A stretch of 64,000 nt of DNA from a bacterium (GTDB lineage: Bacteria > UBP14 > UBA6098 > JAFGQG01). Shown in pieces: positions 2,234-23,871 of the stretch; position 1 is the first letter of the stretch, and every line of letters begins with the position of its first letter. The position numbers and the translations under genes are program-made. Under the pieces are notes generated by a model. It did no database searches, was not told the DNA's origin, and saw only the letters and a program-made list of their open reading frames with translations. The DNA lies in NCBI GenBank assembly GCA_016935765.1, contig JAFGQG010000057.1:7704-71703 (forward strand), in the 5' to 3' direction.

Positions 2234-3862
2234 ATGAAAGCTGTAATATCAGTTTTGTTTTTAGTTTTGTTCGCGACAACTGCATTTGCCCAGGTTCCCG
2301 ATACTCTCTGGACCTATGAACTTTTATCCCACTGTTATGGCTCTCCCGCCTGCGCGGACATCGATTTTGACGGGTATCTTGAAATCGTCTTCGGAACTTA
2401 CTTCGATGATGAACACGCTTATTGTCTCAATGCTGAGGACGGCAGTTTGAAATGGCGGTACTATACCGGCGGCGGTCCCCTGGATGCGGCGCCCGTGATT
2501 GCTGACGTTGACCTCGATGGCTCCCTCGAGGTGATAATCCCGGCAAGCTGGGGTATAATGTTCTGCTTTAACGGTGATGGCTCTGTTCAGTGGATTTACC
2601 CCCGCTACGATTACGTGGAATGCATTGATTCCCCGCCGTCTGTTACGGATGTCGATGGGGACAACCGTCCCGAGGTCATATTCGGCGCATGGTACGGCAA
2701 GGTTTACGTGCTCAATGGCGAGGACGGCTCTCTCCTCTGGGAACGCTGCTACTGCGAGGATGGCTACGTTCAAAGCGCTCCCTGTATCCTCGACTGCAAC
2801 ATGGATGGCGACCTCGACATCGTTATAGGGATGTTCCGCGGGGATTGCAAACTCTATGCGCTGCACGGCGCTGATGGCGAAACCCTGTGGACCTACCAGG
2901 CGGACGACTGGATGTACGCGGGAGCTGCAACCGCCGACATAGACCTCGATGGTCTTCCGGAATTGGTTGTTGGAGATTACTCGGGTAAAGTCTTCGCCTT
3001 GGAAGCAGAAGATGGCTCCTTCAAATGGGAAAGAAGCATCGGATACTACGTCTTCCCACCCGTTACAATTGCTGAACTAAACGATGAATATTCGGGTCCG
3101 GAGATACTAGCTGCAGAAAATGAACTTTACTGCCTCTCGGCGGACGGCTCTATCATCTGGGATTATCCGACTGGTGGCTTGATAGACCGCGGAGCAGTAG
3201 TCGCAGAGGTTGATGGTGATGAGGATTTAGAAGTAATATTCGGGTCTTCAGATTGTTACCTTTATGTCTTGAATGGCGAGGATGGTTCGCTGGTATGGAG
3301 ATACTATACAGGTTCAGGTTACCCCATAGAGAACGCCCCCGTGGTAGCGGATTTCGACCTCGATGGTTGGGTGGATATCTTCTTCATAGGTGGACATGGA
3401 ACTTCCGACACAGTCCCTAATTACGGAAGGGCTTACGCAGTGAGGGCTGGACCCGGGAACGGAGAGACCTGGACAATGTACCGTCACGACGCATACAGGA
3501 GCGGTTACCTTGAAGGGGGTCCCGCGGAGAGCATTGAGCAGCAATCAATAATTCCTGACAGATTTGATATTTTGTGTTATCCTAATCCATTTAATTCGGT
3601 GGTTACAATTGCTATTGGAGGGGCGTTAAATTTAACACCCTTACATACAACAACTCCACATACAACGTCTTTACAGGTGGATATTTTTGATATTAATGGG
3701 AGGTTGGTTTGGAATCTTGATTCCCCCTGGCTCCTGTCGCCTGATTCCTATTCCCTATCCTTCTCCTGGCAACCCGATCCATCGATCCCCACCGGTATTT
3801 ATCTCATAAAAGTCGAGATAGGGAAGCAGAACACTACCCGGAAAGTGATATATTTGAAGTAG
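2234..3862 (+). CDS. Secreted FG-GAP/PQQ-like beta-propeller repeat protein with a T9SS type-A C-terminal sorting domain
   Basis: AGGAG sits 7 nt upstream. The N-terminus is a signal peptide (MKAVISVLFLVLFATTAFAQ). It has repeated DGSLKWRY / VDLDGxxEVI FG-GAP-like blades. The C-terminus reads CYPNPFNSVVTIAIG...IYLIKVEIGKQNTTRKVIYLK, which is Por_Secre_tail-like. Confidence 0.8.
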   Translation: MKAVISVLFLVLFATTAFAQVPDTLWTYELLSHCYGSPACADIDFDGYLEIVFGTYFDDEHAYCLNAEDGSLKWRYYTGGGPLDAAPVIADVDLDGSLEVIIPASWGIMFCFNGDGSVQWIYPRYDYVECIDSPPSVTDVDGDNRPEVIFGAWYGKVYVLNGEDGSLLWERCYCEDGYVQSAPCILDCNMDGDLDIVIGMFRGDCKLYALHGADGETLWTYQADDWMYAGAATADIDLDGLPELVVGDYSGKVFALEAEDGSFKWERSIGYYVFPPVTIAELNDEYSGPEILAAENELYCLSADGSIIWDYPTGGLIDRGAVVAEVDGDEDLEVIFGSSDCYLYVLNGEDGSLVWRYYTGSGYPIENAPVVADFDLDGWVDIFFIGGHGTSDTVPNYGRAYAVRAGPGNGETWTMYRHDAYRSGYLEGGPAESIEQQSIIPDRFDILCYPNPFNSVVTIAIGGALNLTPLHTTTPHTTSLQVDIFDINGRLVWNLDSPWLLSPDSYSLSFSWQPDPSIPTGIYLIKVEIGKQNTTRKVIYLK

Positions 3863-3963: not shown

Positions 3964-5886
3964 GTGATAAAAACTCATACCAGGTTTGTTTTATTTATAA
4001 CAATAAGTTTAACTTTATTCTTACCTGTCTATGTTTTATCGTGGACTCAGAGTACCGAGATGGTTCTTATGCGGGATAGTGTTCACCTTGCGACCGAGGT
4101 GTATCTGCCGGATTCATACACTGAGCCACTACCTGTTATACTCCAAAGGACGCCCTACAACAGAGACATGGATGACGAGATAGTTGATCTGGCTACAGAC
4201 TTGTTAGGCTATGCTTTAGTATCGCAGAATTTAAGGGGGAGGTACGAATCCGAGGGTGTCCCGCTGACTTTCCTTTCCGACGGATGGGGACCCCTGCAGG
4301 ATGGTTACGATTGCCTTGAGTGGCTGGTCGCGCAGCCCTGGTGCAATGGAAAGATAGGGATGTGGGGAGCATCCGCGCCGGGAATGACACAATATTATTG
4401 CGCGGGTACACACCACCCCAACCTAACGTGCATTGCTCCCGTCGGAGCGGGACATAGTCTCTATCACTACGTGGCTTATAACGGCGGCGTTTACAGAAAA
4501 GCGCTTGTTGAAAGCTGGCTGGAGGGCATCGGTTCACTTGGTATGGTGGATACGATCGTAAACCACCCTAACTATGATGCGTTCTGGAGCGTAGCAAACC
4601 TTGGTGAAAGGTGGGATTCCGCCGCGGTGCCAGCTTTCCATGCTACAGGCTGGTATGACTTATACACCGATGGGCAATTAGAAGCGTTCTCCGAAATGAA
4701 GGCAAGATTCGGTAACCAGAAAATGTTTATCGGACCATGGAGACATGGGAACGCCTGGGGAAGTCGCTATCAGGGAGATCTTGTCTATCCCCCGAACGCT
4801 GAAATGTCCGAAGAGACGCTAGCCCTGATGGCAGTTGCATGGTACAACTACTGGCTGAAGGATGAATCCAGCGAAATAGTGGAATCGCCCCCAATTACTT
4901 TTTACCTTACCGGTGACTGCGATGAAGACTCCGCATTTTATTGGAACACATGGATGGCTGCCTATGATTGGCCACTCCCCAATATGGAATATAGGTCGTA
5001 TTACCTGGATGATGGAGGGATACTCGATACAATGTTTCCGGTAACCGCGACGGCTGATACATACGCGTATGATCCTGAAAATCCATGTCCGACAATAGGT
5101 GGCAGGGAATATATCGGGCTTACTATGGGGTATGGTCCTAAGGACCAGCATCCAATCGAGAACCGGACAGATTTATTGCTATTTTCCACGCGGGTTCTTG
5201 ATGAACCCACCATAGTAATCGGGAAATTGAAACTCATACTCTATGCCTCCTCGAACAGGCTGGATACCGATTGGGCGATCAGGGTGACGGACGTTTACCC
5301 GGATGGAAGGTCCATTTTGATGACGGATAATATTCTGATGGCGCGTCATCGGAACAGTCTAGCAAGTGAAGAACTACTTACGCCAGAAGTTCCGGACACC
5401 TTCGAGATAGACATCTGGAGTATCGCCCACGTATTCAACGCGGGTCACCGCATCAGGATAATCGTATCATCATCCAACTACCCCCGGTTCGAGAAAAACC
5501 CAAACACAGGCGCTCCATTTATAAGGGATGACCCAACTACACTTGTAGCAACCAACGTAGTCTATCATTCACCTGGACTTCCGTCTCACCTGCTGCTACC
5601 CGTAGTCCCTTCAGAAGCTTTATATGTGAAGGAAACAACTGCCAAACCGAATGATTTCGAGTTGCACTGTTATCCCAATCCCTTCAATTCCAGTGTGAAT
5701 ATCACTTGCCCGGTCGGAACGGAAATTGAAATTTACGATCTGAGAGGCAGGCTGGTAGGCAAGGATATTACCACGAGTACCCAAATCATCTGGCAGCCGG
5801 ATCCGTTGACAAGTTCCGGAATATACCTGATTCGAGCGCAGAGCGGAGGCAAAACCGCAAGGAAAAGGGTAGTTTACCTAAAATAG
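3964..5886 (+). CDS. CocE/NonD-family hydrolase (S15 X-Pro dipeptidyl-peptidase-like) with a T9SS C-terminal domain
   Basis: GTG start with AGGAG upstream and a signal peptide. It carries the TPYNRDM...GYALVSQNLRGRYESEG...GMWGASAPGMTQYY motifs of the CocE/NonD alpha/beta hydrolases, plus a C-terminal beta-sandwich. The tail reads HCYPNPFNSSVNITC...IYLIRAQSGGKTARKRVVYLK. Confidence 0.8.
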   Translation: MIKTHTRFVLFITISLTLFLPVYVLSWTQSTEMVLMRDSVHLATEVYLPDSYTEPLPVILQRTPYNRDMDDEIVDLATDLLGYALVSQNLRGRYESEGVPLTFLSDGWGPLQDGYDCLEWLVAQPWCNGKIGMWGASAPGMTQYYCAGTHHPNLTCIAPVGAGHSLYHYVAYNGGVYRKALVESWLEGIGSLGMVDTIVNHPNYDAFWSVANLGERWDSAAVPAFHATGWYDLYTDGQLEAFSEMKARFGNQKMFIGPWRHGNAWGSRYQGDLVYPPNAEMSEETLALMAVAWYNYWLKDESSEIVESPPITFYLTGDCDEDSAFYWNTWMAAYDWPLPNMEYRSYYLDDGGILDTMFPVTATADTYAYDPENPCPTIGGREYIGLTMGYGPKDQHPIENRTDLLLFSTRVLDEPTIVIGKLKLILYASSNRLDTDWAIRVTDVYPDGRSILMTDNILMARHRNSLASEELLTPEVPDTFEIDIWSIAHVFNAGHRIRIIVSSSNYPRFEKNPNTGAPFIRDDPTTLVATNVVYHSPGLPSHLLLPVVPSEALYVKETTAKPNDFELHCYPNPFNSSVNITCPVGTEIEIYDLRGRLVGKDITTSTQIIWQPDPLTSSGIYLIRAQSGGKTARKRVVYLK

Positions 5887-6145: not shown

Positions 6146-8068
6146 CTATTTCAAATATATTATCTGGTTGAAATAAGAATCGCCGGCACTGGTTCTGATC
6201 CTTACCAGGTAGATACCGCTTGCGAGGGCAGGGTTTGGTTCCCACCTGAATGATGACTGCGATTTGAAGAGTCCTCCTTTGGAAACCGCCGGCTGCTGCA
6301 GATCACTCCATTCAGCGATTAGCTTACCCCGAATATCAAAGATACGTACCTGTAATGAGGGCTTGTTTTTCCCCACGAATATCGATAGCGAAGAATTAAA
6401 CGGGTTTGGATAAATGACCGGTTCCGCCTGAAGGGGAACAGGGGTACCTTCTTCGATTCCCACATCCAGCAGCCATATACCGCCGTACACTATCAGGCTG
6501 TCTGCTTCGGTGGATTCTAAAGTAAACCGCAGTACATAAAGACCCTCCCTCAAGCCGTCAGTAACCCAGGTACCCAGGGTGTCGTTCCGGACTTCCACAG
6601 AATCTTCGGTGATAAAATTCCACTCAAATGCGCTTGGATCAGCCCATCGAAAGGTGTATTTCTTAAATTCGGCAGCATTGTGGGGACCAGCGTGTATCCA
6701 TGCAGAACCAAGGAAGGCTATCCTGTCCCCCACCTCGGCGGTATCGGGGACCTGGAGGGTGGAAAACATCACCAACGCAGTGTCCATTGCGAAGGGTAGA
6801 GAATCGAACTCGCAGTTGACGCACAGAATTTTGGAACTCTGATGCGCTATATTCGTGGACTGCGCGATCCCCGGACGAGTGGGAGCAACCACAGCGTTCT
6901 CAAGGTAAGTGGTAGCGCCGTACCAGGAACTTACGAAGGCGGTCACCTTGCCATCCTTGAAATCGAACCTCCCCTTATCCACGGAGGTGACCGAGCTTGG
7001 AAAGCCGTTCGTGGAGCAGTTAACAGCGCTTATGTATGAACTATCCCGGGCATGAGCCTCCCCCCAGTAGCAGGATTCCATCGAAAGCCTGGAATCGTCG
7101 AACGTATAAACGCACCAGAGCGCCAGGTATGAATTGACGAATCTTAGAATCCTGTCAACGAACGGGAAGTCCAGAAATGTGTAATAAGTTTTATTATTTA
7201 CGCCGCTTAAATAGACTTCATGTGAACCAGATAACCTGAGCGCAAGGCAGAATACCGAGTTGTTCACCGTAACGGAGCCGCCAGATTTTAGTTCTACTCC
7301 CGGAAAGAGATTGCTGCACGAATCGAAAGTAGCGCTGTACTTCATCCCAATAGCTCCGGGATAAGTCGAATCGAACTCGAAATGCTCAACGAACTCATAG
7401 TCCGGGAACTCAACATCCATGATCATTTCCTCCCCGGCTTCGAACCAGGGGAGTATGGTGTCGCAACGGGTCATGCGCACGCAGCATGAATCGTTCACAA
7501 GCAGGTCTCCAACTATATCGGCGTCTTCAAGTATCAGCGTTGACATGTCGTAGCACTCTCGGAAATTCCAGAAGGGAAAACTGGTCCGGCGCGCTATGTA
7601 GATGCTGCTATCATGCAGAAATGTCCGGAAAGTTGTGTTGGCATATACAATTGCATCGGTAGCTTCGAAATAGGAATTGTCCTGCATGTACTGCGGGTAC
7701 TGCGAGACGAAGACCTGCATGACGTGCAGGTAGCCCCCATCACGGATAATGACTTTGCCGTTATCCTGCTGCCAGAGACTCCCGTAAAGCTTGAGTTCCG
7801 CTCCTTCTACTATGACCACACCATCTCCCATCACTATCAGGTGGTCCTCAATTTGAAGGAAAGCATCTACGAATAGGGTATCCGCGCCCGGTCCCACAAT
7901 ATAGTATGTGGATTCCATCAGGTCCTCCAGGCGAACCTCCCGTGCTGACGCAGGGATCAGGGATATCCCCGGGCGATCATCCAGAACGTCAGCGGTGAGT
8001 GTATGACTTATTAAAATAAGTGATACAGCTGCTATGATATTTATAACAAATCTCAAATCCATTATCAT
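6146..8068 (-). CDS. Secreted hypothetical protein, T9SS cargo (type-A CTD)
   Basis: 640-aa ORF with an N-terminal signal/anchor (MIMDLRFVINIIAAVSLILISHTL). The C-terminus reads IYPNPFNSSLSIFVGK...RIFDIRGKLIAEW...GIYLVRIRTSAGDSYFNQIIYLK. No recognisable catalytic motif. Confidence 0.7.
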   Translation of the reverse strand: MIMDLRFVINIIAAVSLILISHTLTADVLDDRPGISLIPASAREVRLEDLMESTYYIVGPGADTLFVDAFLQIEDHLIVMGDGVVIVEGAELKLYGSLWQQDNGKVIIRDGGYLHVMQVFVSQYPQYMQDNSYFEATDAIVYANTTFRTFLHDSSIYIARRTSFPFWNFRECYDMSTLILEDADIVGDLLVNDSCCVRMTRCDTILPWFEAGEEMIMDVEFPDYEFVEHFEFDSTYPGAIGMKYSATFDSCSNLFPGVELKSGGSVTVNNSVFCLALRLSGSHEVYLSGVNNKTYYTFLDFPFVDRILRFVNSYLALWCVYTFDDSRLSMESCYWGEAHARDSSYISAVNCSTNGFPSSVTSVDKGRFDFKDGKVTAFVSSWYGATTYLENAVVAPTRPGIAQSTNIAHQSSKILCVNCEFDSLPFAMDTALVMFSTLQVPDTAEVGDRIAFLGSAWIHAGPHNAAEFKKYTFRWADPSAFEWNFITEDSVEVRNDTLGTWVTDGLREGLYVLRFTLESTEADSLIVYGGIWLLDVGIEEGTPVPLQAEPVIYPNPFNSSLSIFVGKNKPSLQVRIFDIRGKLIAEWSDLQQPAVSKGGLFKSQSSFRWEPNPALASGIYLVRIRTSAGDSYFNQIIYLK

Positions 8069-8096: not shown

Positions 8097-10040
8097 TTAT
8101 CTCGGCAGTCTAACCTCCACGGTATCTTCAACGAACACCCAGTAGCAGAAGCCCGGGGTCAGAAAATCGGCGATAAAATAACTTCTCGCTTCAGCGTCCC
8201 AACCGATGACCGATTCGAAGACTTCGGGGTAGTCGGTGAGCATGGCAACCGGTAGATTATCAGCGGTGCCGCCCAGCATGTTCCAGCCGGGGAAGAGGGT
8301 GATTGATAGTGTATCAAGTCGATTGAATCCGCTGAAGCTTATCGTAGTATCCCTCTCGAACAGCAGCCAGAAACCAGTGCCGGGTTCTGACATTACTATC
8401 CAGTCATAAGCGCTTATAACGGGTATGAAACTCCATGCAGGGAGAAACGCGGTGGGGTAGCAATCCGGAAGTCTGAGAGTATCAACGAACGGGAAGGACA
8501 GCATCTGCCAACCCGCGAAGATCTCGTAGGTCAGGGCTTCTCTGTCATCAGGCGTTAAAAACACGCTCAAATAGCTGAAGACCGTCTCCGCGAAATCGGG
8601 ATTGATCCCGAGTACCGTTACAACGGTATCGATAACGTTGAGCGGGGTGCCTTCCGGAACTGTGTACCGAACCCAGACGTTTTGCCCAGACTGGAATGGT
8701 TTCGGCGCGGTGGAACCTGCAATGGGTGTTACCCACCCTCTCTTTGAAGTTATACCGTAAAACAGGGCTCGAGGAGATGGGGTCAGGTTTTGCATTTCCA
8801 CAAGGAAAGAGTCCCTTTCACCTGCCAACCCGGTATAGTAACCCCATGTGACAGAGCCAATTACAACGCCGGTATCGGCGGCAAAAGTCAATGGTCCGGG
8901 AATCATTATACTCCCCAAACCAGCGCCCGGTGGGATTATATTGTTGCTGAATATGTAGATATAATCATACTGGCAGATAATTGGGAATTCCGCGAAAATA
9001 CCTGAAAAATCGACAAACCCGCCGGGGAGATTGTAGAAATATATCCCGTTTTCACCAAATATATGGGGTCTCTCAATAAGGTCGTTGATAATGATCGACC
9101 TGCTTACAAACCGCAGCGTATCTGCCGCCAGCACTGAATCCGGATGCTCGATTTTCATACTGTCAGCGATGATAGTAACGTTGCCTAATGATGCGGTATC
9201 GACAAGGGCTTTGGACCTTTCGGGAAAGTAGCCGCCCCTTAGGATACCCTCGTCCTCGAACACGCGGCTATTGATTAATACATGACCGTCCCTGGAGCCA
9301 TCGCCGGATTTTATTGAAGCGGCGCTCCAGTTAGTCAATTGGTTCCCGACGAATATCTCAACCGACCCGCCTTTAGCATACCTGCTCCAACCCCCGGCAA
9401 TTGTGCCGTAGTTGTTGAAGTTATCGCCGACCATGATAAAGATGCTTCCACCGTTATAGTCATCATAATTATTGCCCAATATTCTCCCCCATACGTGATT
9501 AAAAAACTCTCCGTTAAGCTGAATATTGATAATGTCCCCGGTTATATCACCGGTTGACATCCCATTCACCAGTGCCTGAGCATTTATGAAAACTTCCTTG
9601 CCGGATATCGTGCCGTCGTTCTCGACAATGCCGGTGAATTGGTTATTAACGCCGATCGCAAGGATACCGTTCGGCGCTTCTATGGTCCCGTTATTATCAA
9701 ACGACAGGGTTTCCCCTTTTGGAGCAACGATAATTAGTTTGCTATCCGAATAAATGCTGCCGGTGTTGACGAAGGCTTCGGTAGTTATCTGGGTGCCGGC
9801 GCATCGCACATTACCGGAGTTCGTCAAGCTTGCGGCGGTGATGTTTTTGCCTGGAATATTACATAACGGAGCGCTAAAAGGTATCACAACATGGTCGCCG
9901 GGTCCGGGGATTCCTGGCGGATACCAGTTGTTCGGGTTGTCCCAGTTGGTGCTCCTACTCCCCGTGAAAAGTTTATCTCCGCAAAATGCTGCCTGTATCA
10001 TTAATAATATTAAAATGGAACAAATGAACGCTTTTATCAT
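8097..10040 (-). CDS. Large secreted beta-helix-like surface protein with a non-canonical C-terminal GWNM module
   Basis: Signal peptide MIKAFICSILILLMIQAAFC. The N-terminal half has G-T-I / N-x-G repeats typical of parallel beta-helix adhesins. The C-terminal ~150 aa (GWQMLSFPFV...GFWLLFERD...PGWNMLGGTADNLPV...GFCYWVFVEDTVEVRLPR) is shared with the 10709..15118 protein and is not a Por_Secre_tail. Confidence 0.7.
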   Translation of the reverse strand: MIKAFICSILILLMIQAAFCGDKLFTGSRSTNWDNPNNWYPPGIPGPGDHVVIPFSAPLCNIPGKNITAASLTNSGNVRCAGTQITTEAFVNTGSIYSDSKLIIVAPKGETLSFDNNGTIEAPNGILAIGVNNQFTGIVENDGTISGKEVFINAQALVNGMSTGDITGDIINIQLNGEFFNHVWGRILGNNYDDYNGGSIFIMVGDNFNNYGTIAGGWSRYAKGGSVEIFVGNQLTNWSAASIKSGDGSRDGHVLINSRVFEDEGILRGGYFPERSKALVDTASLGNVTIIADSMKIEHPDSVLAADTLRFVSRSIIINDLIERPHIFGENGIYFYNLPGGFVDFSGIFAEFPIICQYDYIYIFSNNIIPPGAGLGSIMIPGPLTFAADTGVVIGSVTWGYYTGLAGERDSFLVEMQNLTPSPRALFYGITSKRGWVTPIAGSTAPKPFQSGQNVWVRYTVPEGTPLNVIDTVVTVLGINPDFAETVFSYLSVFLTPDDREALTYEIFAGWQMLSFPFVDTLRLPDCYPTAFLPAWSFIPVISAYDWIVMSEPGTGFWLLFERDTTISFSGFNRLDTLSITLFPGWNMLGGTADNLPVAMLTDYPEVFESVIGWDAEARSYFIADFLTPGFCYWVFVEDTVEVRLPR

Positions 10041-10708: not shown

Positions 10709-13700
10709 ATGTTTATGTTTAAAAAGGCAATTTTCTTTGTAATTATATTGTACTTCTATACTTTCTCCCAAGCCGCCTCCATCGACTCAGTCTGGTTCCG
10801 GGAGGAGACAGATTGTAACGACAGCAACATCGTAACCATTTGTTATATACTCTCCGGGGATGCTTCCGATATAGATATACGAGTGAGTGATGACGGAGGC
10901 GCAACATGGACAGTAGCCCTTACAACCCTTAGTGGTGAGGACGGCGACCTGGGATGCGGAGTTGCACCGGGGGAACACTGCTTTAATTGGATTATGAGTG
11001 AGGATCTGCCCGGCAGAGAGGGCTCCGATTGGGTGGTTGAAGTAAGCGCTTTTGATTTGCTCGACACCTTTGCCATCGTTGATTCAACCGACATCTCGTT
11101 CTCCGACCGCTATGGGCATGGACTCGGATATGGGGATGGCTTCTACTGGGTGTATGATTATACCCGTGGATATGTTTACCAAACGAGTACCCTGGATGAG
11201 TTTACACGGGATTCCATTGTGGATTCATTTTACATAGGCAGTGTGAATAATTGCGACATATCTTACTGCGATAGTAATATATACTTTGGGCGTCATGGCG
11301 GGGAGCCCGACACACTCTTCCGTTACGACCTTCGCGCGGATAGTATCGAAATACTGTTCATTGCACCAGACGTTTCCTGGAACCTTCAAGCTGTTGAATG
11401 TAATGGTTCAGAGGTTTATGCAAGCGCAGACATCCCTGGCGGGGAAATCCAGTGGGTTTTTGAAATTGATATGTCATCACTTCCCTCAACTCGCGTGGAT
11501 ACGATATTGGGTCTCCCCCGCACTGATGATTGCTTAGCAATGGATGGGGATGCCTTTATCAACGGCTACCTTTGGTCGAACAACAATAACGGGAAGATAG
11601 TTAAGGTTGATATAGATTTAGGAGAATTCGTCGGCTGCTATGAAGGCAACCGCCCGGGGACCGGAACCGAAGGATTGTGCTGGGATGGTGAATATCTATG
11701 GTCCCATGACTACGCGAGAGATTATATCTATAAGATAATGATCTATGATAGTATCATTAACGTAACAAGCGATATGGGTCCCCTTGACTCCCGTTCGCCC
11801 GAAATAACTATATCATGCCCTGCGGGACCAGTCGTAACGGGTGATGTCGCGACCTTCTCCTGGCACGTGGACGACATCTTCTGGGTGAATGACCCCTGCT
11901 CAATATCCATCTCCTACTGCGGCGAGATAGAAACCTACACGATCGATGACACGTTCTTCGAATGGACCGTCCCCGCGACTGAATGCGAGGATGGATATTT
12001 CATCGTGGCTGCCAGAGATTCCTTCTGCAACAAGACCCAGGGAATCTGCATGTTCGAGATAGAAAATGCATATATACCATCTTCCATCGACTCACTCTGG
12101 TTCTGGGAGGAAACAGACTGCGATGGCATAAATATGGTGAACATCTGCTACCTGCTGACTGGAGACAACGCAGACATCTTCATCGACATGAGTTCTGATA
12201 ACGGAGCGACCTGGGAGGTGCCGCTGCTGAATCTATTTGGAGCAGAAGGTGATACGGGCGAGAGTGTCGCGCCGGGAGAGCACTGCTTCCAGTGGCTGAT
12301 GAGTACCGACCTCCCCGATGTTGAGAATTGCGGGTTCCAGGTGAGACTCTCCACCGACACAGGGCAATTCGAATACTGGCTCCCGTATGTTATCAACTAC
12401 ACAAGCTGCTCCAGCGGTACAGGCAGCCGCATCTACGTCAGGGGGATATATGATTCCACACAGGTTGAATTCGACTTCGATCATGACGAGGTGATAGATA
12501 CCACCCTTTACCTCGATGTGTATGAAGCGGTCGCGTTCAGTATTCCACAAATTGAAATGGGAACGCACATCATAACCGACAAACCCGTTGAGGCATATTA
12601 TACATATCATTGCTCGAACCACGGCTTATACGAAGACGGCACCCTATCTTATTCGCTGTATCCTGCGTCGATGGCTGGGACCGATTACGCAGTTCCACCG
12701 GCAGATTATACTACTATCCTATCCATCGAGGACGAAGCGATAGTGGCGATTGACACCAACTACTCCGGAACCCTCGACCTCTTCTTCGTGCTCGATAAGG
12801 GAGAAGATACAACGTTCTCCTCATTTACGTCCCCCGTTCATATTTATACCGAGAACAACAAGAGAATAGTGGTAGCGAACGCTTTTCATTCGGGACACCA
12901 CTACAGCAATACCGCGGCTTACAACCTGCTTCCCACGAACCTTCTGGGTGAAACTTACTATGCTCCCATGCAGCATCATTATACTCTCACGGTGGTTTCG
13001 CTGCACTCAAGGGTGGAAGTGATCGCCGTCGAACCGGGAACGAACATAAACATTAACGGCACTCCATACACACCCGCGGTCGGTGAGCTTATCTCGTTTC
13101 TCACCGAGGACGAGGTTTCTGTCACAGCCGATAAGCCGGTCGTTGCAGTACACATTTCGGATGTATATGCCACAGACCCATGGAGCACTCACGAAGACAG
13201 GCACTACATGTACGCGTTCTGCCTGTTCCCCAAGGATGAACTCGCTCGAAGGTATGTTATACCTCCCGTTGGAGAGCTCTATTCGCACGGTTTCCCGGTA
13301 AGGCAGTACGCAATCGTGTCGTTCACGGATGGGTCGTCGATTGATATGGATATTCTGGATGACGGCACTATTGACACCACGTTTTACCTGGACGCCGGCG
13401 AGTTTGTTTATCTCCATGAAGGCGATTACCCTCCCTTTGCGAGCAGTTTTGCTTCGATGGAATCCTCTTCGCCGTTCCAGGTGACTTACTCCCATAGAGG
13501 GTGGTGGTCCAGCCGGTCGGAAACCTGCGAGGGCATGATTTACAACAGCAAGGCTCTCCCCAGCGCTATCATCGCTTCGGGCTGCCTCGACTCGCATCCC
13601 CCGGAAGTGGAAACGCACTGCTTCGCCGAAACGGTCTTCGCTTATGACACCGTACTCTTCGATTGGGAAATTTCGGATATGTTTGAGATTGATGACCCAT

Positions 13701-15118
13701 GCTCGGTTTTTATTTCATATTGCGGGGCAGCAGAGACGTTCATTATGGATGAATCCCCGTTTGAATGGGTCGTTCCGAACATCTCCTGCGACTCCGCCAG
13801 TTTCAGTGTGGTTGCAAGAGATTCGTTCTGCAATTGGGGAGAGGACCTATGCTATTTCAATATCGCCATGGGCGGCACACTTCATCTCGCACTCCCCGAT
13901 ACTGTCGGCTTGCCCGGGGATACGCTTAGGCTGCCTCTTATGTACAGCATCAACCAGGAGCGCTCTACCTCCCACTTCGAATGCGCCATATCATTCGACC
14001 CGGTCATTATGAGCGTGAATGATCTCCACACAGCCGGCAGCATCATGGATACGTGGACTTCGGTCGATCTGGACACCGGTACTGAAGGCTTAGCTGTTGT
14101 CTCTGGCAGTGGTTCGTTCACGGTAGAAGATACACTCCTGTGTTTCCTGGAGATAGTCATTCCCGCCACGGCTCCTGAAGGCGGTTTTACACCACTAGCG
14201 TTCGATTCAGCAGGCTTCTCCGATATGTTACTGCCCATAATCACCGATGACGGATTTTTGATTGTGCTGTTCCCCCCCCTTGAATGGCTGTTCGACCTCG
14301 TTTTGGATGGGGACGATTACCCCTTGAACACGACTCTTACCATCGGGCTAAGTTATTTCGGATCAGAAGGTTACGACCCGGGGCTGGACATCATCCACCT
14401 GCCCGATCCACTCAGTACCCCTGCCTGGTTAATACTCGATGACTCGCTGTATCCTTACATCACTGCCCTCCAGAGGGACGTTCGGGACGTTGTGGGAATA
14501 CCATTATGCTGGAGTATCCTTACTTCCAAGGGATCAGGGTGGCTTACCTGGAATCCCGAGCTACTCCCGCCCGGCGATTTCATGCTCAACGGAAGGGTAG
14601 ATATGAGAAGCGTGGACAGGTACCACTATCGAACTAACGAGACAATCGTGATCTGCTTCACCAGACCCAGACCCGTTACTTATACCTACCACTTCGAAGT
14701 CGGGTGGAACATGATCTCCTTTCCAGTGCTCCCGGTCTATGGCGATATAAACCATATATTCCCCAGCACTGAAGGGGACGCGTACTGGTACGATCCCGAA
14801 TCCAGGAGCTACGAGAGTACAACACTGCCCGAGAGAGCCAAGGGTTTCTGGGTGTATTCATCCGGGGAAACGGAGACGCGGATAGCTGGAATAATGATAG
14901 AGCAATACAGCTTGAGCGTATTCGAGGGCTGGAACATGATAGGTTCCGTTATGGATATTGTTCCTTTTGACGGAATATCATTCGATCCCCCAGCTTCATT
15001 CATTCCGCCTCAATACACTTTTAGTTCGGGTGGTTACGTTCCCAGCTCTGAGATAGTGCCGGCTTTGGGATACTGGTGTCTTTCCACCGGCAATTCGGTT
15101 ATTCAGGTTTCACCCTGA
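10709..15118 (+). CDS. Giant (1469 aa) modular secreted surface protein: duplicated N-terminal modules, cohesin-like domain, shared GWNM C-terminal module
   Basis: AGGAG upstream and a signal peptide. Module A (IDSVWFREETDC...SDDGGATW...APGEHCF) recurs at about aa 455 (IDSLWFWEETDC...SSDNGATW...APGEHCF). Cys-rich module B (ISCPAG...DPCSISISYCGEIETYTIDD...ARDSFCN) recurs at about aa 970. A cohesin-like segment lies at about aa 1060-1190. The C-terminal GWNMISFP...GFWVYSS...EGWNMIGS...GYWCLS matches the tail of the 8097..10040 protein. Confidence 0.8.
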   Translation: MFMFKKAIFFVIILYFYTFSQAASIDSVWFREETDCNDSNIVTICYILSGDASDIDIRVSDDGGATWTVALTTLSGEDGDLGCGVAPGEHCFNWIMSEDLPGREGSDWVVEVSAFDLLDTFAIVDSTDISFSDRYGHGLGYGDGFYWVYDYTRGYVYQTSTLDEFTRDSIVDSFYIGSVNNCDISYCDSNIYFGRHGGEPDTLFRYDLRADSIEILFIAPDVSWNLQAVECNGSEVYASADIPGGEIQWVFEIDMSSLPSTRVDTILGLPRTDDCLAMDGDAFINGYLWSNNNNGKIVKVDIDLGEFVGCYEGNRPGTGTEGLCWDGEYLWSHDYARDYIYKIMIYDSIINVTSDMGPLDSRSPEITISCPAGPVVTGDVATFSWHVDDIFWVNDPCSISISYCGEIETYTIDDTFFEWTVPATECEDGYFIVAARDSFCNKTQGICMFEIENAYIPSSIDSLWFWEETDCDGINMVNICYLLTGDNADIFIDMSSDNGATWEVPLLNLFGAEGDTGESVAPGEHCFQWLMSTDLPDVENCGFQVRLSTDTGQFEYWLPYVINYTSCSSGTGSRIYVRGIYDSTQVEFDFDHDEVIDTTLYLDVYEAVAFSIPQIEMGTHIITDKPVEAYYTYHCSNHGLYEDGTLSYSLYPASMAGTDYAVPPADYTTILSIEDEAIVAIDTNYSGTLDLFFVLDKGEDTTFSSFTSPVHIYTENNKRIVVANAFHSGHHYSNTAAYNLLPTNLLGETYYAPMQHHYTLTVVSLHSRVEVIAVEPGTNININGTPYTPAVGELISFLTEDEVSVTADKPVVAVHISDVYATDPWSTHEDRHYMYAFCLFPKDELARRYVIPPVGELYSHGFPVRQYAIVSFTDGSSIDMDILDDGTIDTTFYLDAGEFVYLHEGDYPPFASSFASMESSSPFQVTYSHRGWWSSRSETCEGMIYNSKALPSAIIASGCLDSHPPEVETHCFAETVFAYDTVLFDWEISDMFEIDDPCSVFISYCGAAETFIMDESPFEWVVPNISCDSASFSVVARDSFCNWGEDLCYFNIAMGGTLHLALPDTVGLPGDTLRLPLMYSINQERSTSHFECAISFDPVIMSVNDLHTAGSIMDTWTSVDLDTGTEGLAVVSGSGSFTVEDTLLCFLEIVIPATAPEGGFTPLAFDSAGFSDMLLPIITDDGFLIVLFPPLEWLFDLVLDGDDYPLNTTLTIGLSYFGSEGYDPGLDIIHLPDPLSTPAWLILDDSLYPYITALQRDVRDVVGIPLCWSILTSKGSGWLTWNPELLPPGDFMLNGRVDMRSVDRYHYRTNETIVICFTRPRPVTYTYHFEVGWNMISFPVLPVYGDINHIFPSTEGDAYWYDPESRSYESTTLPERAKGFWVYSSGETETRIAGIMIEQYSLSVFEGWNMIGSVMDIVPFDGISFDPPASFIPPQYTFSSGGYVPSSEIVPALGYWCLSTGNSVIQVSP

Positions 15119-15208: not shown

Positions 15209-17503
15209 TTATTTATCCCAGAATACACCGTCGCCTTTCTGGGGATCGTTGCGGTCACCGGTTCGTATGGATCGGTTATTGTACCTGGCGCTGCCGGCGT
15301 TGTAGTAATTATCCTTGTTCCCACCGAGATCGATGAATACACCGAGGTTTTTTCCCCCGTCGCCGGGGTGGTAATCTGTAGCTCCGCCCTCTCCGTTTGA
15401 TGTGCCGTCTGATTTATAAGTATCCTTGCCATCCATATCAATAAAAACTCCCATCGCGACCTGCGACGCTCCACCCTGGGAGATGTTCGCGCCGGTGTAG
15501 TTGTCGTCGCCGGCGTCATCTATGAACCAGCCTGAGACGATATCCCAGACCCCGCCCTGGTTTGTGGCTTCGTGACCGGTATAGATGTCATTACCGGCGT
15601 GATCCCTGAAGTACCCAACCGCCTGGTGCGCGCCGCTGCCCATCGTATAGCGGTTCCCGGTTACGATATCATCGCCTGAGAGGTCATCGAAGATACCCAT
15701 GCCGAAGAAGTAGCCGCAGGCGAGCGAGAAGTTACCCGCATCGTATCGATCGTTTCCACCTCTGTCGCAGAGGAGTCCGATCCCGCCTGCCGCGAGTGTT
15801 CGAAAACCGATACCCGCGCCCTGGCTCCAGCCGTCCCACGTGTCCTCATTGCCATACCCGTTTGGTGATTTGAATGCGGCAACGTACTCGTCATCGCCCG
15901 TCGCGTCCACCAGCATCCCCAATCCCTTTGGAACTCCCACTCCCTGGGCGTACCTCGCGCCGTGATAGAGATCGTTGCCATTCCCATCGTAAAGGAGGGA
16001 AGCTCCAAACGCCGCGAAACCCTGGACAGCCTCATCTCCCGTGTAACGGTCGTCTCCATCGTGGTCGATGAGAATCCCCACCCCGCAAAACGCGGCAGCT
16101 TGAGAAAGGCGGTTCCCACGGTAAATATCGTTGCCCTCCATGTCTATGAGACAACCAGCTCCGCAATAGCCGCTGCCTATACTCCCGGGAGTGTTCCTGA
16201 TGTAGGTGTCATTCCCCGCAAGGTCAATATGAAGCCCTGCCCTGCCTTCTTTATACTTGTGATTTACATTATCCACGATAGTATAGGGTGTCCCCCCACA
16301 GTAACCGAGGTAGGTGTCATCCCCGCCCAGGTCGATCCATATCGCCGCCTGCTCGGTATATGTCATGCTCCCTGTTCCGGAGACTATCAAGCGCCCCATC
16401 AGGTCAACATTGTAACCGGAAGCGTTAACAGCTTTCCCGATTCGAACCATTTTATCTATCAGAATATCCTTCTCTTCATCCGCGCCTTCTCCCTGCTGGA
16501 TTTCCAGCAAATTTTTTATTGTAACAGGATTATATAATTTTGTCAAGACAAATCCACTTCTCAATAAACTCGTATAATCTATCTTCCTGGTGTTGTTTAT
16601 AAATTCGTTGTAGCTTTCAACCAGGTCCTCATCAGGGTCTGAATGTATGTAGATGGTTTGCGCGAAAATATCCAGCAGGAAGGGGATGATGTCCGACATC
16701 TCATCAAGCTGCTCATCAGTTAGCCCTATGAACGCCTTGTCGATAAGCTGGTTAGCGGCATATACTCCGTCAATTACCTTGTCCAGGTCGATGATGGTCG
16801 AATCCCGGGCAGGAGCAGGGGAGAGCATGCTGTCAGCATCGAGCGCGAAGGGAACGCCTCGCCAGATATCTTCGGGATTCCCAGTCGATACACTCAGGGT
16901 GGTTTTTACCCATTCACCGGAAGCAAAACAGCTTAATGGCTCCAGCAAAGGTAGAGCAATAGCGTTCAGTGTATAGAATCCCCTGTAATTTTCCACTTCC
17001 TTTCGAAACACCTTTCTCATATTTATGTATTCATTATTTAATTTTGCCTCTGTTATTGCGTTAAGGACCAGTTTGGTGGTCGAGTCCCTATCCCAATCCA
17101 GCATGATATCTTCGGGTACTTGCGGAAAACCGGTGCGGTCTCCGAGTTTCATGATACCCTGGTAATCATCGCGCGTGCCCAATATCATGTATTTGGACAG
17201 TTCCTTGCCGCATCTTTGAAGGGAGAGTTTCAAGCGGTTCCCCGGGGATTTGGTCTTAAGGTAAGCCAGCAGGGAGTCCCTCGATGGTATGGGTATTTCA
17301 TTAACAGCGGTAATGATATCCCCTTCCAGCAGTCCAGCGATCTCGGCGGGAGAGTTTCTGACGACGTTATCCACCTTGAACCCGGGCGGCTCTTCATTCG
17401 TGCTGAGTGTGATACCCATGAAAGCGGTGTTTTCGTACTCCTGGGCGATGCCTATGGTAAGCAGTGTTATTATTAATAACCAAATAAAACCCAGCGATCT
17501 CAT
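15209..17503 (-). CDS. Secreted PDZ-domain protein with a C-terminal ~24-aa tandem repeat tail (GNDxY motifs)
   Basis: Signal peptide, then a PDZ fold (FKVDNVVRNSPAEIAGLLEGDIITAVNEIPI). The C-terminal ~320 aa are 10 or more tandem units of the form (L/F)IDxxGNDxYxGxxxAQGxGxxxGxG. Confidence 0.75.
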   Translation of the reverse strand: MRSLGFIWLLIITLLTIGIAQEYENTAFMGITLSTNEEPPGFKVDNVVRNSPAEIAGLLEGDIITAVNEIPIPSRDSLLAYLKTKSPGNRLKLSLQRCGKELSKYMILGTRDDYQGIMKLGDRTGFPQVPEDIMLDWDRDSTTKLVLNAITEAKLNNEYINMRKVFRKEVENYRGFYTLNAIALPLLEPLSCFASGEWVKTTLSVSTGNPEDIWRGVPFALDADSMLSPAPARDSTIIDLDKVIDGVYAANQLIDKAFIGLTDEQLDEMSDIIPFLLDIFAQTIYIHSDPDEDLVESYNEFINNTRKIDYTSLLRSGFVLTKLYNPVTIKNLLEIQQGEGADEEKDILIDKMVRIGKAVNASGYNVDLMGRLIVSGTGSMTYTEQAAIWIDLGGDDTYLGYCGGTPYTIVDNVNHKYKEGRAGLHIDLAGNDTYIRNTPGSIGSGYCGAGCLIDMEGNDIYRGNRLSQAAAFCGVGILIDHDGDDRYTGDEAVQGFAAFGASLLYDGNGNDLYHGARYAQGVGVPKGLGMLVDATGDDEYVAAFKSPNGYGNEDTWDGWSQGAGIGFRTLAAGGIGLLCDRGGNDRYDAGNFSLACGYFFGMGIFDDLSGDDIVTGNRYTMGSGAHQAVGYFRDHAGNDIYTGHEATNQGGVWDIVSGWFIDDAGDDNYTGANISQGGASQVAMGVFIDMDGKDTYKSDGTSNGEGGATDYHPGDGGKNLGVFIDLGGNKDNYYNAGSARYNNRSIRTGDRNDPQKGDGVFWDK

Positions 17504-21816: not shown

Positions 21817-23142
21817 TTAATGAAAGAATATTTTTATTACTGCATAATTTAAAATGATTGCTACAACAGCAATAATCAAACCTGCTCTACGCAGGTACTT
21901 AGAATTTATCATACCTGAACTATAAGCAATGGCATTCGGTGGAGTGGAAACAGGAAGGCTCATAGCACAGGAAGCCATTAATGCGATCATGAGCGTAAGC
22001 GAGAAAACATTAACTCCAACTGCAATTGCCAGTGGAATCAATATATTAGTTGCTGCTGTATTACTCATAAAAGTGGACATAACAATAGATATTAATCCGA
22101 TTATAAGTATTAGGACAGAAATAGACATTGATTTAAATCTGAGCATATCCATTAACCAAGTGGATAAGCCACTTGATTGCATTGCTATACCCAAAGCAAT
22201 ACCACCTGACATGAGAACCAGAACATCCCATCCAATATTTTTAAAGTCATCAACATTCAGGATTCCTGAAGCCATAAATACCATGGGTGGAATAAGTGCT
22301 ATCATAGCTGAAGGAATTTTGTGCAAAGTTGTTGTTAACCATAGCAATACTGTAAGTATTACAGTTCCTAAAATTAGATAATGTTTATTTTTTAATACAG
22401 TTTTTTCCAGTTTAACTTCTATTTGTTTTATTTGTGGGGGGAATAAAACCAGCAGCAACCACCATATAAATATAGTGAGAACTAAAGCTATTGGCATCCC
22501 CCACGTAACCCATTTTAAAAATGAGATATCAATACCTGCGTTAGCCAAGGACTGAATAGCAATAGCATTCGGTGGGGTTCCAATAGGAGTTCCTATACCC
22601 CCAACGTTCGCAGCGAATGGAATACCCAAAATTAGAGCAATACTGAAAGGATCCTCTTTAAAATCTCTAACCACGGGCAAAATAGCAGCTACCATCAATG
22701 TAGTTGTAGCTGTATTTGACATCCACATTGATAAGAATGCAGTAGTAAGCATAATACCACCCAAGACCGAGCGTGGAGAATTACCTATTTTATTCAGTAT
22801 TGATCTTGCAATTACAGTATCAAGTTTATATTTCTGAAGAGCTGTCGCAAGGAAAAATCCCCCAGCGAACAATACTATTGTTGGGTTCGCAAAGGCAGCC
22901 AGGAAATGAGAATATTTAACTCCTTCAGTAACCGGGGGAATTAAGAAAGCTAGCATTGCTACTACTATTCCACCAGTGGCAGAAATTGGAATTACTTCAG
23001 TAGTCCAGCATAAAATTGCAAAAACAAACACCGCAAGCGTTCTCTGTCCAGAAGAGCTTAAATCCTTTATGGGTATGAATATAAATAAAGCTGATACGAA
23101 AATTAATATGATAAAAATTATCGTGTTTTTACGGTTTATCAT
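21817..23142 (-). CDS. DASS/SLC13-family (divalent anion:Na+ symporter-like) transporter
   Basis: Polytopic membrane protein with the duplicated SNTATT / SNTAAT hairpin signature motifs (MSNTATTTLM, MSNTAATNIL) and GTPPNAIA. Confidence 0.8.
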   Translation of the reverse strand: MINRKNTIIFIILIFVSALFIFIPIKDLSSSGQRTLAVFVFAILCWTTEVIPISATGGIVVAMLAFLIPPVTEGVKYSHFLAAFANPTIVLFAGGFFLATALQKYKLDTVIARSILNKIGNSPRSVLGGIMLTTAFLSMWMSNTATTTLMVAAILPVVRDFKEDPFSIALILGIPFAANVGGIGTPIGTPPNAIAIQSLANAGIDISFLKWVTWGMPIALVLTIFIWWLLLVLFPPQIKQIEVKLEKTVLKNKHYLILGTVILTVLLWLTTTLHKIPSAMIALIPPMVFMASGILNVDDFKNIGWDVLVLMSGGIALGIAMQSSGLSTWLMDMLRFKSMSISVLILIIGLISIVMSTFMSNTAATNILIPLAIAVGVNVFSLTLMIALMASCAMSLPVSTPPNAIAYSSGMINSKYLRRAGLIIAVVAIILNYAVIKIFFH

Positions 23143-23266
23143 AATACCTTCTCAATATATAGAAAAATCAAATATGTATGGAGGTTTCCATGAGTCAACT
23201 TTTTTATTTTAGTATTTTCAAAGAAAACAATAAAACTATCTACACACTAAAACCCTATTTTATTTT

Positions 23267-23803
23267 CAGGCAGCAGTTGATGCAATTCCCGCTACTCTGG
23301 CAGACATTTATGTCATCGAGGTTCAAGATGACAGTACTTATAATGAAGGGATAAATATTTTTAAAGAGAATACCCATCCCCCTCTCTTTTATTCGACTAC
23401 GCCTGACAGCGAGGATTTACACCTGTTGTCTGAATATGGAAGATGGAACCCTGTAACCGAAATATGGGAGAATGACTCCGTATCTTCACCCTGTATCGAC
23501 ATGGGATTCGGAGGACCGGTAAATGAACCTTTCCCCAATGGCGGGATCATAAACCAGGGCGCTTATGGAAATACAGCGGAAGCTTCCAGGTCAGGATATG
23601 GCGATACAAATATAGTTGCTATAAATATAGAGAACACTGACTGTAACTTCGAGGTTTCCTATCGTGGAGAAACGGTAGTATCAGCCGATTCGCAGGAGAT
23701 AATAATCGAGAACATCGGGACTTTACCTAATAATTATAATATTATTCTACCTTTTATTATCCAGAATGCTTTTTGCTTAATAATATTGACTAAATTGTAT
23801 TGA
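23267..23803 (+). pseudogene. Collapsed remnant of the downstream giant repeat gene (N-terminal and C-terminal ends fused, no start or signal peptide)
   Basis: The frame is open from 23234 with no ATG/GTG/TTG before 23426. QAAVDAIPATLADIYVIEVQDDSTY matches aa ~48-72 of the giant protein. It then jumps to PPLFYSTTPDSEDLHLLSEYGRWNP...SPCIDMGFGGPVNEPFPNGGIINQGAYGNTAEASRSGYGDTNIVAINIENTDCNFEVSYRGETVVSADSQEIIIENIGTLP, which matches the last repeat plus the C-terminal tail of the giant protein. Confidence 0.55.
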
Positions 23804-23871
23804 ACAATTATTTTCAATTTAAGCTAAAAAAATAAATTAAGATATGTAAAAATACATAGAAAAGAGGGAAA

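Follow-up and report, generated by a model that had tools for sequence, protein, structure and literature searches.

The signals closest to the protein tails described here are those of the T9SS, a system found in the FCB superphylum only (PMC11205867). The type-A CTD (TIGR04183/PF18962) has the fold of a seven-strand Ig-like β-sandwich (PMC9127263), and type-A cargo is anchored via the CTD/A-LPS route (PMC11205867, PMC12860637). Genes for type-B CTD proteins commonly have a cognate PorP/SprF-like gene adjacent (PMC9127263). The CTD of Flavobacterium johnsoniae ChiA is non-canonical and shows that unrecognised T9SS signals exist (PMC9127263).

We analysed a 64,000-nucleotide stretch of bacterial DNA, referred to throughout as the window. 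Two large secreted proteins encoded in it end in a shared repeat module, named here GWNM after its motif, and have no CTD. The initial annotation had read this module as an alternative sorting, anchoring or attachment signal and possibly a new type of CTD. The case is solid for a new domain-of-unknown-function family, not a new secretion mechanism.

Two window proteins with a common tail

Both open reading frames are real and are divergent neighbours, as first described (Table 1). The NCBI start of MBN2542140.1 is the ATG at 10715, giving 1467 aa as against 1469 aa for the frame opening at 10709. The two tails are homologous (BLASTP E=1e-09; 95 aa aligned at 28% identity), and BLASTP aligns no other part of the pair, in agreement with the earlier view that the proteins are otherwise unrelated. 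The 647-aa protein has no Pfam or NCBIfam match, hence the "beta-helix" label it had been given is without Pfam support. Each tail consists of two tandem units of ~70 aa with the common pattern GWN[ML]..P...Y...G[YF]W. The tail placement of the module stands, with its limits redrawn from 8097-8550 and 14690-15118 to 8100..8537 (minus strand) and 14678..15115 (plus strand), ~145-146 aa in each case. An HMM built from the four units matched only these two proteins among the window's 307 six-frame open reading frames.

Neither protein has a match to Por_Secre_tail, TIGR04183 or TIGR04131, even when the tails alone are scanned at E≤10, which bears out the original observation. There is no hidden CTD 3′ of either gene: the frame at 6146..8068 (minus strand) begins with a start of its own, and what follows 15118 is a convergent gene. 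The five nearby type-A CTD proteins noted previously are indeed present (Table 1). Pfam scans place CTD cargo, a PDZ protein and genes of metabolism around the two, with no PorP/SprF-like gene detected.

Table 1 Coordinates of the GWNM genes, their parts and the type-A CTD cargo genes in the window
Feature	Position	Strand	Details
Gene, 647-aa secreted protein (P0001)	8097..10040	-	MBN2542139.1, "hypothetical protein [bacterium]", locus tag JXI42_04680; ends in GWNM module, without CTD
Probable Sec signal peptide, 647-aa protein	9981..10040	-	MIKAFICSILILLMIQAAFC followed by GD; boundaries approximate; read from translation
GWNM repeat unit 1, 647-aa protein	8322..8537	-	residues 502-573; local hmmsearch 91 bits; alignment A1
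GWNM repeat unit 2, 647-aa protein	8100..8312	-	residues 577-647 (protein end); local hmmsearch 110 bits
Gene, 1469-aa modular secreted protein (P0002)	10709..15118	+	MBN2542140.1, "IgGFc-binding protein [bacterium]"; ends in GWNM module, without CTD
Probable Sec signal peptide, 1469-aa protein	10709..10777	+	MFMFKKAIFFVIILYFYTFSQAA followed by SID; boundaries approximate; read from translation
IgGFc_binding (PF17517) passenger domain, top-scoring stretch	12428..12907	+	residues 574-733; Pfam E=1.3e-16
GWNM repeat unit 1, 1469-aa protein	14678..14890	+	residues 1324-1394 of the long ORF; local hmmsearch on P0002 95 bits
GWNM repeat unit 2, 1469-aa protein	14903..15115	+	residues 1399-1469 (protein end); local hmmsearch 104 bits
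Type-A CTD cargo, FG-GAP/PQQ propeller	2234..3862	+	Pfam scan, local CTD HMM
Type-A CTD cargo, S15 peptidase	3964..5886	+	Pfam scan, local CTD HMM
640-aa cargo protein adjoining the 647-aa gene	6146..8068	-	canonical type-A T9SS CTD, residues ~552-636; PF18962 E=1e-08, TIGR04183 E=1.8e-09, local CTD HMM
Type-A CTD protein	33653..34930		
Type-A CTD protein	36595..36993		

Extent, fold and placement of the GWNM module

With a limit of E≤1e-3, an exhaustive HMMER search retrieved 6,899 cluster representatives, of which 1,299 also pass E≤1e-10. This exhaustive search was necessary, a word-indexed homology search having returned no match with one tail and six proteins with a 60-sequence profile. 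The module has no match in Pfam-A, NCBIfam or PDB sequences, and literature searches with the motif strings found no mention of it; its description as apparently new thus holds. The proposed comparison with the type-A and type-B models was made on the full proteins, the tails and 60 family members: PF18962, TIGR04183 and TIGR04131 matched none of 62 sequences (two tails at E≤10, 60 members at E≤0.1), and identical scans do pick up the CTD in the neighbouring genes. Judged by sequence, the GWNM module is a large, widespread and apparently uncatalogued extracellular domain family. Genome loci were gathered with a hand-designed degenerate DNA pattern for the module. The same pattern had no match in 2.9 million viral contigs, and a phage origin or a link to receptor-binding proteins was dropped.

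The two units are clearly related to each other, with an hhalign probability of 99.7% (E=3.9e-27) between unit 1 and unit 2 profiles made from 150 family members. The residues GWN, S/G, P, Y and GYW are invariant in each repeat. Almost always a module has exactly two units, and in 85 of 91 cases 28-29 aa separate the GYW of the first from the GWN of the second, as expected of one structural domain. The 150 closest relatives carry one module per protein and no arrays. AF2, supplied with a 60-sequence alignment (A2) whose first sequence, the module of the 1469-aa protein, was the one modelled, predicts a compact all-β domain of 14 short strands (pLDDT 97.2, pTM 0.90), in line with the β structure anticipated earlier. 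The strands are 3-9 residues long, about seven to each ~70-aa repeat. The confident model required the alignment; with a single sequence pLDDT was only 36. A Foldseek search of the PDB with the AF2 model returned no neighbour and retrieved no Ig-like CTD structure. Against a 28-sequence CTD alignment, hhalign gave probabilities of 0.3% for the repeat-unit profile and 0.6% for the whole-module profile.

The N-termini of module proteins resemble signal peptides, and the passengers are diverse. Among 60 members they include LVIVD, RCC1, FG-GAP, SBBP and NHL propellers, β-helices, S8, C25 and C1 peptidases, purple acid phosphatase and lectin-like domains. The only CAZyme passenger in these 60 is one GH39, which does not favour a carbohydrate-binding module of the classical kind, directed at polysaccharide substrates. 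Other arrangements also occur. One protein (L092) is a signal peptide plus the module and nothing else; at another locus (L110) two paralogs have the module straight after the signal peptide, followed by ~600 aa; the module is N-terminal in L100; L017, L019 and L108 read signal peptide, module, extra domain, CTD; and P0048 continues from the module through a Pro-rich linker to a TM helix at its C-terminus. No partner or other non-cargo gene, cohesin-like or otherwise, recurs beside the module genes in the 120 loci listed, each of ≤8 kb; a receptor gene may lie elsewhere in the genome.

The position of the module was surveyed in 124 complete open reading frames from at least 120 species-genome loci, mostly Ignavibacteria and Bacteroidota. 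Among the matches listed, a type-A CTD lies 100-250 aa downstream of the module in 92/124, the module is terminal in 21/124, and 11/124 have other extensions. By comparison, 116 of the 150 closest relatives of the window modules end within 10 aa past the module; the two samples are biased in opposite directions (77% terminal among the closest relatives, 17% among the genome matches listed). The terminal and CTD-bearing forms interleave, the nearest relative being a CTD-bearing module for 15 of the 21 terminal modules listed, and only one of these 21 genes has a CTD signal, a weak one, within 900 nt downstream. Extensions of 13-50 aa past the module show no recognisable sorting signal or TM helix. 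In many Ignavibacteria and Bacteroidota proteins a ~140-aa "ELPPxPP..FD.RF" domain comes after the module; neither window protein has this domain ahead of its module. A search for proteins ending in the module in the source MAG (JXI42), as had been suggested, found at least six, all CTD-less. In a placement of the source organism by ClpB, matches of 70-80% identity were spread across numerous phyla and pointed to no single one. We note that a terminal module on at least six large CTD-less JXI42 proteins resembles tag-like usage.

By MAG label, the module reaches lineages outside the range of the T9SS, always there without a CTD: Dehalococcoidia (P0035, P0072, L020), Chloroflexota (L092), Lentisphaerales (L008), Victivallales (L078) and the DPANN archaea Nanoarchaeota (L038) and Micrarchaeota (L066), the neighbour genes at the archaeal and Chloroflexota loci, viewed by eye, not confirming these labels. 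It is also present in a MAG labelled Coprothermobacterota. MAG labels may be wrong; one module locus labelled Saccharibacteria (L084) bears a CTD.

An outer-membrane β-barrel translocator of the autotransporter kind was considered for the module and rejected on its strands of 3-9 residues, its location upstream of CTDs and the lack of a Pfam match. Its presence in MAGs with a Chloroflexota or DPANN archaeal label also speaks against such a translocator. To our knowledge, neither Chloroflexota nor DPANN archaea have an outer membrane.

Possible roles of the module

As a whole, the best explanation appears to be an autonomous two-repeat extracellular accessory domain, independent of the export route and probably concerned with binding or attachment; we put its probability at about 0.5. 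Two tandem ~70-residue β-repeats fold jointly into one compact all-β domain of ~145 residues. This domain is joined to highly diverse Sec-exported passengers, typically as the final globular part of the mature chain. In T9SS hosts an ordinary type-A CTD is usually added behind it; where no T9SS is expected, and in some proteins of T9SS-bearing organisms including both window proteins, the module is itself the protein end. It may bind or attach to a ligand, be it glycan or protein, that belongs to a target or to the cell's own envelope, whatever the export route. Such a binding function, suggested by architecture alone, is offered tentatively, at rather less than even odds. The window proteins would then be large surface proteins resembling adhesins or enzymes, with the module as their binding end at the C-terminus, and would reach the periplasm via Sec; the module does not account for their crossing of the outer membrane.

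The sorting-signal proposal, put in its sharpest form, makes the terminal module a third type of CTD that the T9SS translocon of JXI42-like lineages recognises instead of a CTD of type A or B. T9SS cargo is present in the organism, with five type-A CTDs in the window alone, and at least six large proteins exported via Sec have the module at their end and no CTD at all. The repeat unit, at ~70 aa and about seven strands, falls in the size class of the type-A CTD (AF2; PMC9127263), and a T9SS-secreted chitinase whose CTD is unlike types A and B (PMC9127263, citing Kharade and McBride 2014) provides a precedent. The survey nevertheless argues the other way. A bona fide type-A CTD follows the module in most of the open reading frames listed, the two forms interleave, and the module also stands alone, at N-termini and in MAGs labelled as T9SS-less lineages, archaea included. 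Profile similarity to the CTD is absent (hhalign 0.3-0.6%), as are matches to the three CTD models in the 62 sequences, Foldseek returns no Ig-like CTD structure, and Pfam scans detected no PorP/SprF-like neighbour of the kind typical of type-B loci (PMC9127263). We regard a third CTD type as highly improbable. The module does occur mid-protein elsewhere, and there too it corresponds to no known domain; it is very probably an autonomous domain and not a CTD-type signal.

A non-covalent anchor or docking domain that holds the protein on the envelope of the producing cell, through LPS or another glycan, an S-layer or a scaffold protein, and in archaea no less than in bacteria, would make the module of the JXI42 MAG a retention device for CTD-less surface proteins. 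Its C-terminal bias in the closest relatives (116/150), its location directly ahead of the CTD cleavage and attachment region in T9SS cargo, its single copy without arrays, and passengers that are generic surface proteins and not CAZymes are all consistent with this, as are the at least six terminal-form paralogs of the source MAG and the module of P0048, set on a linker beside a TM anchor. Surface proteins of DPANN archaea and Chloroflexota are expected to need some envelope attachment, and the occurrence of the module in MAGs so labelled counts in the same direction. A second anchor would, however, be redundant for roughly three in four of the listed genome-resolved members, which the CTD/A-LPS route already anchors; N-terminal modules with ~600 aa behind them (L110, L100) and the standalone secreted protein (L092) fit poorly; no neighbouring partner gene recurs in the 120 loci listed; and the envelopes of diderm FCB bacteria, Chloroflexota and DPANN archaea would have to offer one common ligand. 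A surface anchor is thus possible, though we think it unlikely. The same may be said, with a little more doubt, of a wider proposal in which the module is a retention or docking domain independent of any secretion system, a functional analogue of SLH and dockerin domains in bacteria and archaea with a fold not yet in the PDB, and in JXI42-like lineages displays a set of giant surface proteins in place of the T9SS CTD/A-LPS route; in a narrower version the terminal form would also be a non-canonical T9SS signal. Without any ligand, the module might instead be a structural end-cap or spacer, stabilising the C-terminal end of repetitive passengers or spacing them from the CTD or membrane. It does come after large repeat-rich passengers and ahead of linkers and CTDs, and its conserved G, W, Y and P are kinds of residue often found in β-sandwich cores. 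There is, though, nothing to cap in L092 or in the small proteins L017, L019 and L108, the module is always single and never a spacer array, and its strong conservation on unrelated passengers in bacteria and archaea argues for an intrinsic activity. A purely structural role accordingly seems quite improbable.

Comparison with known systems

In uncultivated bacteria and archaea the module is part of thousands of large proteins that are secreted or located at the surface, and their annotation is currently blank there. A family model would improve it, would mark the end of the mature protein ahead of T9SS CTDs and would keep the tail from passing as a sorting signal. Because its AF2 model is very confident and Foldseek finds no neighbour for it in the PDB, the module would be well worth an experimental structure and a simple screen for binding. 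Were it a general means of surface attachment, it would have value as a display tag and would contribute to explaining surface decoration in organisms that lack classical anchors.

Like the type-A CTD, the module is all-β and is carried close to the C-terminal end, or right at it, by many unrelated FCB proteins exported via Sec, and one of its repeats has ~70 aa and about seven strands. Unlike the type-A CTD, it fuses two repeats into ~145 aa and has no sequence or profile similarity to the CTD, is usually upstream of a true CTD in the same polypeptide, is not tied to the extreme C-terminus, and extends to MAGs that bear the labels Chloroflexota, Lentisphaerae and DPANN archaea. It differs from the type-B CTD in having no TIGR04131 match and no PorP/SprF-type neighbour in Pfam scans, and from type-B and ChiA signals, the latter compared by description, in coexisting with type-A CTDs and in occurring beyond T9SS lineages. 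An analogy may be drawn with dockerin and SLH domains, which likewise show a C-terminal bias on many unrelated secreted proteins of bacteria and archaea, and the internal duplication is reminiscent of dockerin. Those domains are helical, with Ca binding in dockerin, whereas the module is all-β and has no sequence similarity to them; Pfam scans of the tails and 60 members gave no match to PF00404 (dockerin) or PF00395 (SLH). From the CBMs, lectin-like and Ig-like domains that precede CTDs, the module is set apart by the lack of any CBM, lectin or Ig family match (Pfam, NCBIfam, PDB sequences, Foldseek) and by its few CAZyme passengers. It nevertheless resembles these accessory binding modules in being a small autonomous β domain with promiscuous passengers, present in one copy per protein, terminal or just ahead of the CTD, and with conserved aromatic residues.

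Two divergent proteins with a common tail

The 647-aa and 1469-aa ORFs are divergent neighbours, as the initial annotation had described. When their full-length products were compared by BLASTP, only the C-terminal regions aligned (E=1e-09, 28% identity, 95 residues), confirming that a C-terminal module is common to both. Each tail comprises two mutually alignable units of ~70 residues. Across the four units G, W, M, P, Y and W are invariant, in the pattern GWN[ML]..P...Y...G[YF]W, and the four-unit HMM matches just these two ORFs among the 307 six-frame ORFs of the window. The isolated tails gave no Pfam or NCBIfam match, even at E<=10. Domain scans bore out the reported absence of Por_Secre_tail from both proteins; the five type-A CTDs said to lie in the window are also present, and no concealed CTD was found downstream of either gene. 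Both N-termini, read by eye from the translation, are signal-peptide-like.

Positions of the two ORFs and of their GWNM modules
Feature	Position	Strand	Limits
647-aa ORF	8097..10040	-	
GWNM module of 647-aa protein	8100..8537	-	HMM
1469-aa ORF	10709..15118	+	
GWNM module of 1469-aa protein	14678..15115	+	HMM

The 647-aa protein, labelled a beta-helix in the initial annotation, has no Pfam match. In translation the 1469-aa protein shows internal duplications (residues ~24-120 vs ~455-550 and ~355-440 vs ~960-1050), namely 'IDSVWFREETDCNDSNIVTICYILSGD...' vs 'IDSLWFWEETDCDGINMVNICYLLTGDN...' and two Cys-containing segments of the type 'F.W...D.F..DDPCS..ISYCG'. A cohesin-like stretch (~1055-1190) stands directly before the module, and Pfam recognises none of these.

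The window is part of a 77.8-kb contig of a bacterial MAG whose ClpB has hits at 70-80% identity spread over many phyla, pointing to no single one. Its remaining genes encode metabolic proteins (aminotransferases, a radical SAM enzyme, methylmalonyl-CoA mutase, alanine dehydrogenase) and further secreted proteins. Convergent with the 1469-aa gene is that of a 764-aa protein (15209..17503, minus strand) in which a PDZ domain at the N-terminus precedes many short 'G(N/D)D.Y'-type repeats that Pfam does not recognise. A 2858-aa beta-helix/NosD/pectinesterase-like protein (23872..32448, plus strand) carries neither Por_Secre_tail nor the GWNM module, and its last ~250 residues matched nothing in any test applied; it is the third giant secreted-type protein of the window with no recognised C-terminal signal. 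Around the start of its gene and a transporter gene (22001..24000) the G+C content is 0.36, against 0.43-0.53 in the flanks; it is also lower (0.35-0.40) over the window's final 10 kb. A BNR/sortilin-like ORF (35665..36594, plus strand) is closed by an in-frame TAA (36592-36594), past which the same frame continues for 133 codons to 36993, the last ~77 residues being a strong type-A CTD (local HMM E=2.5e-28). The whole (35665..36993) looks like one cargo gene whose CTD is cut off by a single stop codon, by the look of it a pseudogene, a sequencing error or read-through.

Module anatomy and family

When unit 1 and unit 2 were each profiled from 150 family members, hhalign matched the two profiles with a probability of 99.7% (E=3.9e-27); the module is therefore an internal duplication. 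Exactly two units are found in 146 of the best 150 module matches, nearly always as a single adjacent pair, and in 85 of 91 cases GYW of unit 1 and GWN of unit 2 lie 28-29 residues apart. From a 60-sequence alignment with the tail of the 1469-aa protein as first sequence, AlphaFold2 gave a single compact all-beta domain of 148 residues (mean pLDDT 97.2, pTM 0.90), made up of 14 short strands plus a short helix; from the single sequence, without alignment, pLDDT was 36. With its fixed spacing, adjacent pairing and compact model, the pair behaves as one structural domain, not two beads. The fold is confidently predicted, and Foldseek finds no place for the model in the PDB.

HMMER, run exhaustively against 1.84 billion cluster representatives, found 6,899 proteins at E<=1e-3, of which 1,299 pass E<=1e-10. 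In species-representative genomes, at least 120 loci match a degenerate DNA pattern derived from the module motifs, which captures 61% of modules; the loci listed hold 132 module ORFs, 124 with a stop codon. Of the best 150 relatives, which are the matches closest to the repeats of the window itself, 116 stop no more than 10 residues past the module and 30 continue for at least 60 residues, 25 of these finishing in a type-A CTD (...NYPNPFNP...SGIYFYRL...KMLLLK); among the 124 genome ORFs a type-A CTD follows in 92, 21 are terminal and 11 have other extensions. The two samples have opposite biases, so that neither share can stand for the family at large, but terminal and +CTD arrangements are both plainly common. 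The module-to-CTD spacing in the genome ORFs is ~120-130 or 220-250 residues. In one protein (P0048) the chain runs on from the module through a proline-rich linker to a transmembrane helix at the C-terminus.

At four Ignavibacteria/Bacteroidota loci (L044, L082, L110, L115) two to three module paralogs stand in tandem within 8 kb, thus the family expands through local gene duplication. A second recurrent domain of ~140 aa, with the motif 'ELPPxPPxGxFDxRF', lies between module and type-A CTD in 66 Ignavibacteria/Bacteroidota ORFs (including those of L017, L019, L099 and L108) and occurs in the proteins P0053, P0107, P0132 (as a fivefold repeat) and P0147. It was not found in the window proteins, and none of the families that Pfam reported for full-length members corresponds to it.

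Relation to T9SS signals

Five lines of evidence speak against the initial proposal of a new CTD type. The module mostly lies upstream of a canonical CTD in the same chain, where a second signal would be superfluous, which disfavours a signal role. Terminal and +CTD modules do not form separate clades, a +CTD module being the closest relative of 15 of the 21 terminal modules (35-55% identity); in the 900 nt that follow the terminal genes, just one of the 21 showed a CTD signal, and that a weak one. The module is not limited to C-termini. The protein of locus L092 is a signal peptide and a module with no other content; two paralogs at L110 carry it right behind the signal peptide with ~600 residues after, L100 has a similar architecture, and in the small proteins of L017, L019 and L108 (signal peptide, module, extra domain, CTD) the module is the cargo itself. 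It is also encoded by MAGs labelled Dehalococcoidia, Chloroflexota, Lentisphaerales, Victivallales, Coprothermobacterota, Nanoarchaeota and Micrarchaeota (labels as given); the CTD is absent from all six complete ORFs of loci so labelled, consistent with the confinement of T9SS to the FCB superphylum (PMC11205867). Finally, likeness to the CTD profile is nil (hhalign 0.3-0.6%), with zero matches to TIGR04183 (type A), TIGR04131 (type B) or PF18962. Type-B substrates typically adjoin a PorP/SprF-like gene (PMC9127263), and no such neighbour was detected in Pfam scans of the genes beside the two window genes.

A MAG labelled 'Candidatus Saccharibacteria' encodes the module with a type-A CTD (L084, contig CAYISA010000001.1), unexpected for that lineage and suggesting a mislabelled or chimeric bin.

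The source MAG (JXI42_) nevertheless has at least six CTD-less proteins ending in the module (the 647-aa protein P0001, the 1469-aa protein P0002, and P0003, P0004, P0007 and P0008). These six carry two diverged module subtypes, each tracking its passenger family, and related MAGs (JW877_) hold further module-ending proteins. Such usage is tag-like, and T9SS signals outside types A and B have a precedent (PMC9127263); two alternatives are therefore kept. Given the five lines of evidence, it is very improbable that the terminal module is an alternative, non-canonical T9SS signal. That it is a non-covalent surface-retention domain, as its reuse in the source MAG might indicate, is a better but still unlikely explanation: a dedicated self-anchor would be redundant with the CTD/A-LPS route that anchors T9SS cargo (PMC11205867, PMC12860637), and N-terminal forms also argue against it.

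Probable function

As an extracellular domain the module is self-contained and exported by Sec. Each protein has a single copy, which typically closes the globular part of the mature chain, and the passengers it is attached to are very diverse: propellers (LVIVD, RCC1, FG-GAP, SBBP, NHL), beta-helices, S8/C25/C1 peptidases, GH39, purple acid phosphatase and lectin-like domains. Its retention as one terminal unit on unrelated passengers, the standalone form and conservation from DPANN archaea to Bacteroidota suggest that the module would most plausibly bind something, either glycan or protein. A classical polysaccharide-targeting CBM is disfavoured because CAZyme passengers are scarce. No conserved partner gene was found near module genes, and the module leaves the outer-membrane crossing of the two window proteins unexplained.

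The module is best classed as an extracellular accessory domain whose family is both new and large. In behaviour it is most like the accessory binding or Ig-like domains placed between the passenger and the CTD of T9SS cargo; its resemblance to dockerin and SLH attachment modules is by analogy only.
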